Sequence record: NZ_CP049260.1
Direction: 5' to 3' (one strand)
From: a plasmid
Length of the DNA stretch: 64,000 nt
Of this stretch, positions 51,200 to 57,966 are shown piece by piece. How positions within the stretch are numbered: position 1 is the stretch's first letter; each line of letters opens with the position of its first letter. The notes under the pieces were generated by a model. That model saw nothing but the letters and a program-made list of their open reading frames with translations. It did no database searches and was not told the origin of the DNA. A program made the translations under genes and the position numbers.

Positions 51200-51885
51200 A
51201 AGCCCGGCGAGGCGGCCTGCTGCCAACATCCTTGCTGCTCAGGCCGCGGCTTCGATAAAACGCCATCGTACAGTATTGTATTTCGTGTCCTTATGATTAA
51301 TGCTCTTCAGTATATAAATTATTAATTATTTAACGCTGGCATTTCCCCGAAATAATTCTCGATAATTAAGTAGGGGTTGTTGTTATCTGGCAGGAAGAAA
51401 AATAACTTTACTGAAAGACAAATGGATTTATTCGTGAGGCTGGTGTGGATTTAATATTTTTTATGCCAATTCTTTTCGCGGATTCATTCCTTGGATACAT
51501 GATATTAGTCCATTTTCTTTGCCTTTTTTAAGGAAAGGATGATAAATTCCGGCGCAATTGTTACGCGCTAGAAATAATATTTTTTTTAATTAAGGCATGA
51601 ATGCTTTCGGACACGGGGTTACGCCCTGATATCGCTAATGACGAAAATAATTTGCCATTAATACAGGTTCGAAAATGGATAGGTTGTCATTTTTTTAGCA
51701 AAATTCATTTACATTTGCCGTTGTTCATTGTCTTGTGAATAACCACGATGCGCGTAGCATTTGTCAATGTAACTCTCTGTTTTAAAGCTTCTTATTCATT
51801 GCCTTAAGCGCAGTGAGATGGGGTTGCGGAGTCTCGCGACTTCCGGTTCTCCACAACCTGAAACCTTATTGTGAAGGAACACGTC
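51200..51885. promoter_or_regulatory. Long AT-rich (about 32% GC) leader and promoter region upstream of tssB.
   Basis: About 680 bp with many A/T tracts between the GC-rich mocR-type gene and tssB. Typical of H-NS-silenced T6SS promoters. Confidence 0.45.
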
Positions 51886-52383
51886 ATGTCTGGTTCATTT
51901 CAGGAAGAAATTCCTAAAGCCCGTATTAATCTGAAGTTAAATCTGCACACCGGCGGCGCGCAGAAAAAAGTTGAGCTGCCGCTGAAATTACTGGTCACCG
52001 GCGATTTCAGTCACGGCCAGGAGCACCGGCCGCTGTCTGAGCGCAAAAAAATCGACATAAACAAAAATAATTTCGACAGCGTGCTTTCGGAATTTTCACC
52101 GGCGCTGAATCTCGCCGTGGAAAATACCCTGGCCGGTGACGGGCGCGAAGAAAACGTGCGCCTGACCTTCCGCCAGATGAAAGATTTCGAGCCGGAGCAG
52201 GTGGCGCGGCAAATTCCCCAGCTGAAAGCCATGCTCGCGATGCGCAATTTACTGCGCGACCTGAAATCCAATCTCCTTGATAACGCCACCTTCCGCAGGG
52301 AGCTGGAAACCATCCTGAAGGATCCGGCGCTGAGCGATGGCTTACGCGCGGAACTGGCGTCGCTGGCCCCGAAACACGCCTGA
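51886..52383 (+). CDS. tssB: Type VI secretion sheath small subunit TssB (VipA).
   Basis: ATG at 51886 after a GAAGGAA ribosome-binding site. …KARINLKLNLHTGGAQKKVELPLKLLVTGDFS… matches the TssB family. Confidence 0.9.
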   Translation: MSGSFQEEIPKARINLKLNLHTGGAQKKVELPLKLLVTGDFSHGQEHRPLSERKKIDINKNNFDSVLSEFSPALNLAVENTLAGDGREENVRLTFRQMKDFEPEQVARQIPQLKAMLAMRNLLRDLKSNLLDNATFRRELETILKDPALSDGLRAELASLAPKHA

Positions 52384-52423
52384 GGCGCACCGGGTTTATT
52401 ACGGATTAACGAGAGAAATGCTG

Positions 52424-53953
52424 ATGTCTGTTCAGAACACCCCCACTGCTGCCGGCGCCACGCAGGTACCGGAAACCACCGGCGGCGTTTACGCCTCGCT
52501 GTTTGAAAAAATTAACCTTCACCCGGTCGACGCGCTTGATGATATCGACGCCTGGCAGGACAGCCAGCGCCTGGCGGACGCCTCTGCCGATGAGCGCGTG
52601 ACCGCCGCGGTCCGGGTTTTCCTGGAGCGCCTGAAACAGTCCGGCCAGCAGGTTGAAAAGCTCGACAAAACGCTGCTTGACCACCATATCGCTGAGCTGG
52701 ACCGGCAAATCAGCCGCCAGCTGGATACGGTCATGCACCATCCGGAGTTTCAGCAGGTGGAATCGCTGTGGCGCGGCCTGAAGCATCTGGTGAACCGCAC
52801 CGACTACCGCCAGAACGTGCGCACGGAAATTCTCGATATCGCCAAAGAGGATTTGCGCCAGGACTTCGAGGACGCGCCGGAAATCATCCAGAGCGGCCTC
52901 TACTGGCACACCTACACGGCGGAATATGACACGCCCGGCGGTGAGCCGGTGGGCGCGGTGATTTCCTCGTATGAGTTTGACGCCAGTGCGCAGGATATGG
53001 CGCTGCTGCGTAACATCTCTAAAGTCTCCGCCGCGGCGCACATGCCGTTTATCGGTGCCGTCGGCCCGAAATTCTTCCTCAAAGATTCCATGGAAGAGGT
53101 GGCGGCGATTAAGGACATCGGCAACTACTTTGACCGCGCCGAATACATCAAGTGGAAATCCTTCCGCGACACCGACGATGCCCGCTATATCGGCCTGACC
53201 CTGCCGCGCGTGCTGGGCCGCCTGCCGTACGGCCCGGACACCGTGCCGGTGCGCAGCTTTAACTATGTGGAAGAGGTGAAAGGGCCGGACCACGAAAAAT
53301 ACCTGTGGACCAGCGCGTCGTTTGCCTTCGCGGCCAATATGGTGAAGAGCTTCATTAATAACGGCTGGTGCGTGCAGATCCGCGGCCCGCAGGCGGGCGG
53401 TGCGGTGCAGGACCTGCCGATTCATCTCTATGACCTCGGCACCGGCAATCAGGTGAAAATCCCGTCGGAAGTGATGATCCCGGAGACGCGTGAATTTGAG
53501 TTCGCGAACCTCGGTTTTATCCCGCTCTCCTACTACAAAAACCGCGACTACGCCTGCTTCTTCTCGGCGAACTCGGCGCAGAAACCGGCGCTGTACGACA
53601 CGCCGGACGCGACGGCCAACAGCCGCATCAACGCGCGCCTGCCGTATATCTTCCTGCTGTCACGCATCGCGCACTACCTGAAGCTGATTCAGCGCGAGAA
53701 CATCGGCACGACCAAAGACCGCCGTCTGCTGGAGCTGAACAACTGGGTGCGCGGTCTGGTGACGGAGATGACTGACCCGGGCGACGAGCTGCAGGCGTCA
53801 CACCCGCTGCGTGATGCGAAAGTGGTGGTGGAAGATATCGAAGACAACCCGGGCTTTTTCCGCGTCAGGTTGTACGCCGTGCCGCATTTCCAGGTGGAAG
53901 GCATGGACGTCAGCCTGTCGCTGGTGTCGCAGATGCCGAAAGCGAAGGCGTGA
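52424..53953 (+). CDS. tssC: Type VI secretion sheath large subunit TssC (VipB).
   Basis: About 509 aa with TssC-family sequence throughout (…FIGAVGPKFF…, …GFIPLSYYKNRDYACFFSANSAQKP…). Confidence 0.9.
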   Translation: MSVQNTPTAAGATQVPETTGGVYASLFEKINLHPVDALDDIDAWQDSQRLADASADERVTAAVRVFLERLKQSGQQVEKLDKTLLDHHIAELDRQISRQLDTVMHHPEFQQVESLWRGLKHLVNRTDYRQNVRTEILDIAKEDLRQDFEDAPEIIQSGLYWHTYTAEYDTPGGEPVGAVISSYEFDASAQDMALLRNISKVSAAAHMPFIGAVGPKFFLKDSMEEVAAIKDIGNYFDRAEYIKWKSFRDTDDARYIGLTLPRVLGRLPYGPDTVPVRSFNYVEEVKGPDHEKYLWTSASFAFAANMVKSFINNGWCVQIRGPQAGGAVQDLPIHLYDLGTGNQVKIPSEVMIPETREFEFANLGFIPLSYYKNRDYACFFSANSAQKPALYDTPDATANSRINARLPYIFLLSRIAHYLKLIQRENIGTTKDRRLLELNNWVRGLVTEMTDPGDELQASHPLRDAKVVVEDIEDNPGFFRVRLYAVPHFQVEGMDVSLSLVSQMPKAKA

Positions 53954-56371: not shown

Positions 56372-57423
56372 AGGAAGAGACGCGGCAACAGCTGCCGTAT
56401 ATGAATTTTTATCGGTTTTGTCAGTGGCTTGAGCGAAGCCATCCGGGGCTTCCTGTTACCGGGAGCGACTGGCAACTTCGCCATGAGCCGGTACGTTTTC
56501 GCCCGCATCCGGGTATGGGATTTCCGGCTGGTGAAATACGCGGCTCAGAGACCAGCGAACATCCGCATCTCCCGCCGACAGTACGTATCACTTTCATGGG
56601 GCTTTATGGTATTGAGGCACCGTTGCCGACGCAGTATATCGACGACATCGCGCAGCGGCGGGAAGGCTACGAGGCGACGTGCGATTTTCTCGATATCTTT
56701 AATCACCGGTTAATAGCCCAGTACTACCGCATCTGGCGAAAATATTCGTATCCCGCCACCTTTCAGTCAGGCGGAGTGGATAACACCTCACAGTATCTGC
56801 TCGGCCTCGTGGGGCTTGGCATCCCTGGCTGCGCATCTGCCGCGGGTACGCCACTTTCACGTTTTCTGGCGCTGTTGCCTGTAATGATGTTGCCCGGACG
56901 CACGGCAGAAGGCCTGGGCGCGCTGGTCAGGCTTCTTGCGCCACAAACGCAGGCTGCGGTATTTCATCACGACCGCTGCCGTGTTCCGCTGAAAGCGTCC
57001 GCCAGAATGAGTATGCGGCAGCCGCTTAGCCTGAAGCATCGTCCCGTCATGGGAACCTACGCCACCGACGTTAATGGTCAGGTCCTATTGATGCTCACCA
57101 CTGACGATGCCGAAGAGGACCGGGGCTGGCTGCCTGAGGGAGAGCTTAACCGCGATCTTAACGCGCTACTGCACGTCTATCTCGGCGTGCACCTTAATGT
57201 GCGAATGCAGCTGCGCGTACCGCGGCACTTATTAGCGGATGCCCGCCTGTGCTGTAAGCCGGAATATCCCGTGCAACTGGGCCGCACGGCGTTGCTGAAG
57301 CCGCTTAATGCCGCTGCGCGGCGCAATAATGAGATGATTACCATTCCTCTGGGCCGTTGGGAACAGGTTCAGGAAAACATTCACCGTAGGGAGAGCGATG
57401 AAGATGGCGAATACCGCTGGTAA
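56326..57423 (+). CDS. tssG: Type VI secretion baseplate subunit TssG.
   Basis: 365 aa overlapping the tssF 3' end. The …LPYMNFYRFCQWLE… N-terminal motif is typical of TssG. Confidence 0.8.
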   Translation: MYPLERESQSAPARLKEETRQQLPYMNFYRFCQWLERSHPGLPVTGSDWQLRHEPVRFRPHPGMGFPAGEIRGSETSEHPHLPPTVRITFMGLYGIEAPLPTQYIDDIAQRREGYEATCDFLDIFNHRLIAQYYRIWRKYSYPATFQSGGVDNTSQYLLGLVGLGIPGCASAAGTPLSRFLALLPVMMLPGRTAEGLGALVRLLAPQTQAAVFHHDRCRVPLKASARMSMRQPLSLKHRPVMGTYATDVNGQVLLMLTTDDAEEDRGWLPEGELNRDLNALLHVYLGVHLNVRMQLRVPRHLLADARLCCKPEYPVQLGRTALLKPLNAAARRNNEMITIPLGRWEQVQENIHRRESDEDGEYRW

Positions 57424-57931
57424 AGTGGTGGCTGTAATGCTGACGATGGCAGTGCTGGCGGGCTGTGGGTTGACGCAAAAAGTCACAGACGGCGCCGCCT
57501 CAGTGACCCGCTCGCTGTTCTTCAGACAGATAAAAACGCTGCATCTGGATATTCGGGCAAGGGAAGGCGTCAATAACAATGAGAGCGGGGCGGCGCTGGC
57601 GACGGTCGTGCGTATTTACCAGCTGAAAGACCGTAAGGCGTTTGACAGCACTGATTACCCCTCGCTATTCGCCGATGACAGCCAGGCCATTAAAGCGGAT
57701 CTGGTCGCTGAAAAAGATATCCAGTTGCGGCCGGGAGAATCATTCACTCTGGATATGCCTCTGGAGGAGACGGCGCAGTATGTGGCCGTGGCGGGGATGT
57801 TTATGGCCCCTGACGACACCAACGATAGCTGGCGTCTGGTGCTGTCACGCGACGATCTCGAACCGGATACGCCGAGAATTATTGAGGCCAGCAATAATCG
57901 CCTCACGCTTCAGCCGGTTAACGACAAATAA
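57398..57931 (+). CDS. tssJ: Type VI secretion outer-membrane lipoprotein TssJ.
   Basis: Signal peptide with lipobox LAGC. 177-aa TssJ-like sequence. Overlaps the tssG end. Confidence 0.8.
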   Translation: MKMANTAGKVVAVMLTMAVLAGCGLTQKVTDGAASVTRSLFFRQIKTLHLDIRAREGVNNNESGAALATVVRIYQLKDRKAFDSTDYPSLFADDSQAIKADLVAEKDIQLRPGESFTLDMPLEETAQYVAVAGMFMAPDDTNDSWRLVLSRDDLEPDTPRIIEASNNRLTLQPVNDK

Positions 57932-57933
57932 AG

Positions 57934-57966
57934 AAAGGGCCACCCGCAAAAGTGGCCCTTTTTATT
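57934..57966. terminator. Bidirectional rho-independent terminator between tssJ and the convergent dsbG.
   Basis: AAAGGGCCACCCGCAAAAGTGGCCCTTTTTATT: a perfect stem with A- and T-runs on both sides. Confidence 0.8.

Follow-up and report, generated by a model that had tools for sequence, protein, structure and literature searches.

A truncated type VI secretion cluster on a pESA3-like plasmid of Cronobacter sakazakii and the positions of its deletion breakpoints

Genes remaining at the plasmid locus

We analysed a 64,000-nucleotide (nt) stretch of the plasmid record NZ_CP049260.1 (hereafter the window), in which a short cluster of type VI secretion system (T6SS) genes occupies positions 51200-57966. 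Because pESA3-family plasmids, from their position 1, match window 1-25000 at 98.3% identity, the window is taken as the first 64 kb of a pESA3-like IncFIB virulence plasmid of Cronobacter sakazakii. IncFIB is the type given in the records of the matching pESA3-like plasmids. A megablast search of a plasmid collection matched the locus in 25 Cronobacter plasmids, including pESA3 of C. sakazakii BAA-894, and an exact-protein look-up found the TssF of the window on many Cronobacter contigs. The T6SS locus thus stands on the expected backbone, and its surroundings agree with the published description, in which the plasmid T6SS region is flanked by a gntR-like gene and by dsbG/dsbD, which are copper-tolerance genes (PMC7074816): a gntR-like/aminotransferase gene lies upstream, and dsbG and dsbD lie downstream.

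The remnant comprises five intact core genes (tssB, tssC, tssF, tssG, and tssJ) and two stumps, the 5' end of tssK and the 3' end of tssM (table 1). A first-pass annotation made from the letters alone had listed tssB-tssC-tssK'-tssF-tssG-tssJ, and this list was borne out by the open reading frames (ORFs) and by Pfam; its count of six core genes holds for the five intact ones, but tssK is only a stump and a tssM stump is also present. The AT-rich leader and strong terminator between which it had placed the locus are there as well: the leader sits in the lowest-GC kilobase of the region (GC 0.43), and a terminator-like hairpin separates the convergent tssJ and dsbG. The leader is plasmid-specific, and homology to the chromosomal T6SS copy starts only at 51872; it had no match in Rfam, and a promoter scan gave no sigma-70 consensus hit.

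Among the intact genes, tssB encodes a protein identical to many chromosomal and plasmid copies, the TssF protein is identical in plasmids with an intact tssM, and tssJ is the final cluster gene in all Cronobacter plasmids examined. In tssC, a GCTGGA tandem repeat is contracted by 6 nt at 53727/53728, which removes Leu-Glu and leaves 511 instead of 513 amino acids (aa). This contraction is the sole private change of the lineage across the compared flanks, and because TssC carries it, an exact look-up of this protein returned only contigs with the same 16.8-kb deletion that is described below. It occurs in some carriers of the deletion scar and not in others, and therefore came later than the deletion.

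The tssK' ORF consists of 129 native codons (53968-54354), an out-of-frame Pro-Gly-Arg contributed by tssM, and a TAA stop at 54364-54366, in place of the 133 N-terminal codons first counted. TssK has lost 317 of its 446 codons (~71%), considerably more than the half that had been estimated. The tssM' remnant lacks a start codon context of its own, and gene callers report an 83-aa ORF at 54308-54559. Pfam gave no match, including none to TssK, for the ORF ending at 54559, and the translated tssM' remnant matches the C-terminus of TssM.

The junction between tssK and tssM

The full-length cluster of pCsaC79b (NZ_CP049145.1; locus L024) was used as the reference for mapping the deletion. Its genes are ordered gntR-like / tssB, tssC, tssK, tssL, tagL (OmpA-family), hcp, and tssH, then a DUF7480 immunity lipoprotein gene, vgrG, a 207-aa gene, DUF2931, PAAR, and a 385-aa gene, and finally tssM, tssF, tssG, and tssJ / dsbG and dsbD. 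The window aligned to it in two blocks, 40429-54358 with L024 1-13959 and 54352-61625 with L024 30728-38001, with identities of 96.4% (left block) and 98.2-98.7% (right block). Only one gap was found, of 16,775 bp, running from tssK nucleotide 387 to tssM nucleotide 3204. It removed the 3' part of tssK, tssL, tagL, hcp, tssH, the immunity gene, vgrG, the effector genes, PAAR, the 385-aa gene, and most of tssM. The internal deletion that the first-pass annotation had offered as one of two possibilities is therefore what the alignment to an intact cluster gives. Of the genes it had supposed to be missing between tssK and tssF, tssL, tagL, hcp, clpV, and vgrG are lost; tssM had been overlooked, and tssA and tssE do not belong to that interval.

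The two sides meet at GTA (54352-54354), a 3-nt microhomology that is also tssK codon 129; when GTAaCCG and GTAcCCG are compared, the match is 6 of 7 nt. The bases around the junction read ...CTGAACGG GTA ACCGTTCAG... on the tssK side, ...GAGTGCGTA CCCGGGCGTT... on the tssM side, and ...CTGAACGGGTACCCGGGCGTT... in the window. With a 3-nt overlap, no extra sequence, no insertion sequence (IS), and no long repeat, the junction has the features of a microhomology (illegitimate) deletion. An IS-mediated origin of this deletion was rejected, as no IS sequence is present at the junction. The frame change near 54351-54362, which had been taken for a +1 frameshift in tssK, does exist, but it is the tssK::tssM deletion junction. 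From 54352 on, the sequence is the tail of tssM, and it is to this gene that the stop at 54559 and the 48-nt gap preceding tssF, both correctly noted earlier, belong. Likewise, in contigs with an identical TssF, the gene ending exactly 48 nt 5' of tssF is the 1136-aa TssM/IcmF. What annotation pipelines report here as "TssK" and an 83-aa hypothetical protein are thus the two sides of a deletion scar.

Both flanks of the scar were found undeleted in close relatives. On the right, window 54352-58100 is 100% identical to intact tssM-tssF-tssG-tssJ stretches in L003, L004, L008, and L042, all of which have an intact tssM and 100% identity across 54355-57931. On the left, the gntR gene, the leader, tssB, and tssK(66-384) of L032 are 100% identical to the window, and L032 has an intact 446-aa tssK. 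Because no substitution separates the flanks from relatives that keep tssM or tssK (0 in 3.6 kb of right flank and in ~4.5 kb of left flank), the deletion must be recent, in line with the recent decay suggested at first. The exact 132-aa TssK' was recovered on 13 contigs, which come from independent assemblies and share one layout, so the scar is not an artefact.

We consider it nearly certain that the locus is the T6SS cluster of a C. sakazakii pESA3-like IncFIB plasmid inactivated by one recent internal deletion. The two ends were joined at the GTA microhomology, with the left end in the loop of a quasi-palindrome within tssK, and the scar may go back to a break, or to stalled replication, at this hairpin, after which the ends were joined through the microhomology. 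Three points weigh against this account. The breakage at the hairpin is read from the breakpoint position and its recurrence; TssB and TssC are identical or nearly so to a chromosomal paralogue, judging by their sequences, and could in principle still be used by another system; and the state of the strain's chromosomal T6SS is deduced from related strains and from PMC6204376.

Table 1. Features in the window, and lesions of related plasmids and loci in L024 coordinates (each listed plasmid or locus has a different lesion)
Feature	Position	Strand	Remarks
Orphan hcp, 160 aa	42344-42826	+	NCBIfam TssD 55.9 bits, slightly below cut-off
Conserved 312-aa gene after orphan hcp	42845-43783	+	
Gene with GntR and Aminotran_1_2 domains	49865-51199		Upstream of leader; Pfam
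AT-rich intergenic leader, 686 nt	51200-51885	+	Between GntR/aminotransferase-family gene and tssB
tssB (VipA), 165 aa, intact	51886-52383	+	Pfam PF05591, E 2e-53
tssC (VipB), 511 aa, intact save 6-nt in-frame contraction	52418-53953	+	Pfam PF05943, PF18945
tssK' stump, 132-codon ORF	53968-54366	+	Pfam PF05936, profile positions 1-114 of 429
Surviving left arm and loop of tssK quasi-palindrome	54333-54354	.	Intact form CCGCTGGCAGTCTGAACGG-GTAA-CCGTTCAGGAGCTGGCGG, L024 13934-13974
tssM' 3' remnant, last 68 codons and natural stop of 1136-aa TssM/IcmF	54355-54559	+	100% nucleotide identity to intact tssM (L003, L004, L008)
tssF, 587 aa, intact	54608-56371	+	Pfam PF05947, E 3e-169
tssG, 365 aa, intact	56326-57423	+	Pfam PF06996, E 1e-62
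tssJ lipoprotein, 175 aa, intact	57404-57931	+	Pfam PF12790, E 3.5e-30
Terminator-like hairpin, 12-bp stem	57934-57961	.	Between convergent tssJ and dsbG
dsbG, DsbC_N/thioredoxin protein	57965-58714	-	Pfam; convergent with tssJ
dsbD	58711-60732	-	Pfam
Lesion in pESA3	385-aa gene +789 to tssJ+139		
Lesion in pH322_2	tssK+482 to tssM+2727		
Lesion in pSP291-1	tssK+387 to tssG+654		
Lesions in pCrono589-1	tssC+684 to +851; tssK+387 to tssH+2502		
Lesions in pFS1	tssC+49 to vgrG+153; vgrG+1830 to tssG+911		
Lesions in pGK1025B_2	tssC+56 to vgrG; tssM+1021 to tssF+700		
Lesions in pCs1-54664	tssC+52 to tagL+678; vgrG+548 to tssM+2136		
Lesion in pGW2	tssM+1718 to tssF+73		
Lesion in L032	tagL+126 to vgrG+958		
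Lesion in L034	tssC+51 to dsbG+52		
Lesion in ATCC 29544 plasmid CSK29544_1p	L042 13533-14673		Left cluster part missing, tssB into effector region; IS1B copy adjoins truncated end

Breakpoints in other truncated clusters

Truncated plasmid T6SS clusters have already been published, and the lesion of the window is an already-known phenomenon. Such clusters were described on pH322_2, pGK1025B_2, and pSP291_1 (Negrete et al. 2022, PMC9169379), and in a survey of C. sakazakii plasmids by polymerase chain reaction (PCR), Int L was found in 98%, vgrG in 55%, the R end in 60%, and Int R in 37%, the internal T6SS markers being absent from ~40-60% (PMC7074816). The present locus is one more allele of a plasmid cluster that is treated as truncated in the Cronobacter literature and is used mainly as a PCR marker for plasmidotyping. 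A degenerate T6SS is also known from the chromosome of the same species, where, among 138 C. sakazakii strains, 30% had an intact T6SS-2, 25% had lost it, and 45% had it in degenerate form, while T6SS-1 was intact in 138 of 138 (Wang et al. 2018, PMC6204376). T6SS-2 differs from the cluster studied here in being another locus, on the chromosome, that contains fimbrial genes.

Compared with its plasmid relatives, the window has its own combination of losses. The pESA3 cluster (BAA-894, NC_009780.1, ESA_pESA3p05491-05506; Franco et al. 2011, as cited in PMC7074816) shares the IncFIB replicon, the flanks, the leader, and the same genes at 96-98% nucleotide identity. However, pESA3 keeps tssB through PAAR and has lost 6.7 kb (the 3' part of the 385-aa gene, tssM, tssF, tssG, and the 5' part of tssJ), whereas the window keeps tssF, tssG, and tssJ, has lost the middle 16.8 kb, and has a chromosomal sequence type from tssB through tssK(1-65). 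The plasmids pH322_2, pGK1025B_2, and pSP291_1 belong to the same family and have a large internal T6SS deletion, and the gene content of pH322_2 (tssB, tssC, tssK', tssM', tssF, tssG, tssJ) is nearly identical to that of the window; their breakpoints are nevertheless different, with two deletions in pGK1025B_2, and represent independent events. The deletion in the plasmid of ATCC 29544, which has an IS1B copy at its truncated end, appears to have taken a different route from the microhomology events elsewhere. Without the deletion, the locus was found on pCsaC79b and on the JXES-28 plasmid (NZ_CP098775.1). These two carry the 16.8 kb missing from the window but are still without recognisable tssE and tssA. 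In Klebsiella pneumoniae CP125156.1 (L026), the same order of PAAR, hypothetical gene, tssM, tssF, tssG, and tssJ was found, with ~75% nucleotide identity over tssF, tssG, and tssJ. There, tssJ is followed by tssE and a VasL-domain gene (L026 22789-25206), whereas the Cronobacter plasmid cluster ends at tssJ, followed by the terminator and dsbG (L024 33780-35090; window 57404-58714). CP125156.1 is a 5.37-Mb PLSDB "plasmid" and evidently a mislabelled chromosome; at L026 15888-17079 it has an ISKpn18 insertion upstream of tssG, and tssM and tssF are not listed as coding sequences there.

The cargo between vgrG and PAAR was found to vary among otherwise collinear plasmids. It consists of a 207-aa unknown gene, or a Tle1-like lipase with DUF2931, or a GPI-inositol-deacylase-like gene with Tli4, or an M35 peptidase (L024 24678-26043; L005 2849-5061; L044 12457-15188; L045 14915-16804), and is an exchangeable effector/immunity module.

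The left breakpoint of the window falls in the 4-nt loop of a hairpin of the intact tssK gene. The core of this quasi-palindrome is an 8-bp perfect stem, CTGAACGG-GTAA-CCGTTCAG, in codons 126-132, which extends to 17 pairs; as single-stranded DNA, the intact palindrome has a folding energy of -15.9 kcal/mol (z -4.47), and none of 200 shuffles was as stable. In the window, pCrono589-1, and pSP291-1, the left breakpoint is tssK+387 to the nucleotide, and the right ends differ. A homologue search with the TssK stump, which returned short proteins only, was used as a survey of truncated TssK alleles. A hot-spot prediction was set down after this search had been made but before the stump sequences from other lineages were read. 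Three of the stumps (P0004, P0005, and P0006, in L056-L058), from Enterobacter-like lineages at ~75% nucleotide identity, leave TssK at codons 129-131 and continue, respectively, into the 3' end of tssL, into DNA lying upstream of an hsp20 gene, and into unrelated sequence. All three breaks are within ~7 nt of tssK+387, and all three right ends are different. The tssK site is thus the left end of at least six independent deletions, L025, L039, and L056-L058 being among them. Its place at the hairpin apex and its reuse may reflect palindrome-stimulated deletion of the SbcCD or slippage type.

A second recurrent left breakpoint was found at tssC+49..56 (CAGGTACCGGA; also read AGGTACCGGA), which is intact in the window at 52465-52473 and contains the motif GGTACCG (52465-52471). 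Five independent deletions with five right ends begin there, in L034, L040, L041, L043, and the chromosomal paralogue L014. The sequence GGTAA?CCG, a motif shared by the tssK and tssC sites and defined after the data had been seen, occurs only four times in the 23.6-kb cluster, always on the + (coding) strand, and three of the four sites are deletion endpoints; at the third GGTA(A)CCG site, vgrG+954, the L032 deletion has its right end, and the fourth site is hcp+266. Every hot-spot deletion extends downstream, although for L056-L058 this directionality is biased, because the protein-based survey detects retained N-terminal stumps only. Five endpoints in 8 nt and three to six in 7 nt of a 23.6-kb target would be vanishingly unlikely under a uniform model. 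The remaining junctions have ordinary microhomologies of 1-11 nt at scattered positions.

These observations bear on an alternative to random decay, namely that inactivation is sequence-directed, acting at a fragile or recognised site (the tssK palindrome or GGTA(A)CCG), so that T6SS loss would be high-rate and one-directional. The reuse of tssK+387 with different right ends, also in the three Enterobacter-like lineages, the five alleles that begin at tssC+49..56, the share of motif sites that are endpoints, the common downstream direction, and the strong hairpin at the tssK site all argue for it. On the other hand, the motif is post hoc, no notable hairpin was found at the tssC site (z 0.16), the other junctions are ordinary and scattered, the L056-L058 search could see only N-terminal stumps, and no enzyme has been identified. 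We regard a sequence-directed process as possible but somewhat doubtful. Restriction sites as a common cause of the hot spots were rejected on comparison with enzyme specificities: GGTNACC is the sequence at tssK and vgrG, GGTACC that at tssC, and most partner sites fit neither. Xer/cer-like sites were rejected as well, as the tssM partner shares GTGCGTAC with the XerC arm of cer but has no XerD arm.

Applied to the window, the hypothesis would be that its deletion was non-random, having begun at the conserved tssK quasi-palindrome, which together with the tssC+51 site forms a deletion hot spot that inactivates the T6SS one way, downstream. We put this forward only tentatively, as a rather unlikely account. 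The hot spot would then extend over Cronobacter plasmids, the Cronobacter chromosomal cluster (tssC site), and Enterobacter-like lineages (tssK site). If true, it would imply a specific mechanism of DNA breakage (a hairpin nuclease, a nuclease or recombinase with a site preference, or a mobile element that targets TA, for example) and possibly an evolvable and irreversible "off switch" for a costly weapon. Recurrent breakpoints, if real, would provide a secretion system in which sequence-programmed gene loss could readily be studied, and their centring on a palindrome might be the only aspect beyond the known phenomenon that repays further work.

Function of the remnant and its chromosomal counterpart

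Firing of a T6SS requires all 13 core components. Of these, the two sheath proteins TssB and TssC are full length in the window, according to their Pfam matches. The baseplate is incomplete: besides an intact TssF and TssG there is only a TssK of 129 codons out of 446, and TssE was not found in the window. So is the membrane complex, with TssJ intact, tssL deleted, and tssM reduced to its last 68 of 1136 codons. For the tube, the spike, and ClpV, the hcp, tssH, vgrG, and PAAR genes of the cluster are all within the deleted interval, and the sole Hcp gene left in the window is the orphan hcp at 42344-42826, which had been recorded at first as an hcp at 42.3 kb. A tblastn search with Klebsiella TssE and VasL gave no hit to the window or to either of two full-length plasmid clusters, and when the unassigned genes of the full-length cluster were compared with Pfam and NCBIfam, none was recognised as TssA or TssE. 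These databases assigned no family to the 207-aa gene that follows vgrG or to the 385-aa gene that precedes tssM. Even the longest version of the plasmid cluster has only 11 recognisable core genes, without tssE and without a recognisable tssA. Because TssK, TssL, TssM, Hcp, ClpV, VgrG, and PAAR are missing, and TssE and TssA were never there, established T6SS biology predicts that the remnant can neither be assembled nor fire by itself. Its ORFs have probably survived intact because the deletion is young, and not through maintenance for function. As "complete" plasmid clusters also lack tssE and tssA, claims of a working pESA3-type T6SS call for caution.

The left part of the remnant resembles the chromosome more than other plasmids. 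From 51872 to 54032 (14 nt upstream of tssB to tssK nucleotide 65), the window matches the chromosomal bet-linked T6SS of ATCC 29544 (L016), with no substitutions in tssB and tssC, only the 6-nt tssC indel, and one mismatch in tssK 1-65. By comparison, between the window and other pESA3-like plasmids there are 14-25 differing sites in tssC and 15-16 among the 65 of tssK 1-65. In this lineage, the segment resembles a tract produced by gene conversion between the plasmid cluster and the chromosomal one. In two assemblies, contigs join chromosomal and plasmid flanks in reciprocal ways. In GCA_037070595.1 (JAYKDW010000003.1, a 374-kb contig; L001/L027/L049), a chromosomal betaine-operon flank is joined to the plasmid remnant and its right flank, and in GCA_051846815.1 (a 1.47-Mb contig; L021), the plasmid left flank (hcp, ars genes, gntR) is joined to chromosomal-type tssF-tssG-tssJ-vgrG. 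L001 and L021 could be the reciprocal junctions expected from plasmid integration via the tssB-tssC repeat, or assembly chimeras. For the 374-kb contig, an exact look-up of the product of the ORF at window 22-969 gave no match, and a look-up of an RND pump gave no contig above 200 kb.

This likeness also raises the second possibility of the first-pass annotation, that the system is split across loci and that plasmid TssB, TssC, TssF, TssG, and TssJ work with membrane-complex and spike genes of the chromosome. With 0 mismatches to the chromosomal tssB-tssC apart from the indel, the sheath proteins would be interchangeable, and the chromosomal T6SS-1 was reported as intact in C. sakazakii strains (PMC6204376). 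Nevertheless, close relatives whose flanks are identical carry the missing genes side by side at exactly this position, so that the arrangement is a scar, not a design; tssB and tssC are also present in the related chromosomal cluster (L016, L019, L020), making the plasmid copies redundant; plasmid TssF, TssG, and TssJ have diverged from the chromosomal type (TssJ ~47% identity against Klebsiella queries, with different lengths); and different gene subsets are deleted in many other strains. We therefore think a split or complementing system very improbable.

An assembly or sequencing artefact that collapsed the cluster has practically no chance of being correct. The near-identical tssB-tssC repeat of chromosome and plasmid does break or mis-join drafts, as contigs ending inside tssB or tssC (L010-L011, L028-L031, L035-L038) and the union of a chromosomal bet flank with the plasmid locus in L001 illustrate, but the junction lies in unique sequence outside the repeat, recurs on the 13 contigs from different projects, and has analogues in finished plasmids. 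Equally negligible is a point indel close to 54351-54362 after which the remainder of tssK would be read in a different frame. Although the frame does change there and an ORF runs on to 54559, Pfam finds no TssK in 54355-54559; this piece matches the end of tssM at 100% identity, its translation is the C-terminus of TssM, and intact tssK continues with unrelated sequence (GTAACCGTTCAGGAG...).

Outside the main cluster, the orphan hcp is followed by a 312-aa gene that was assigned to no family by Pfam or NCBIfam. Every pESA3-like plasmid inspected carries this pair (42344-43783), regardless of how much of its main cluster is left.

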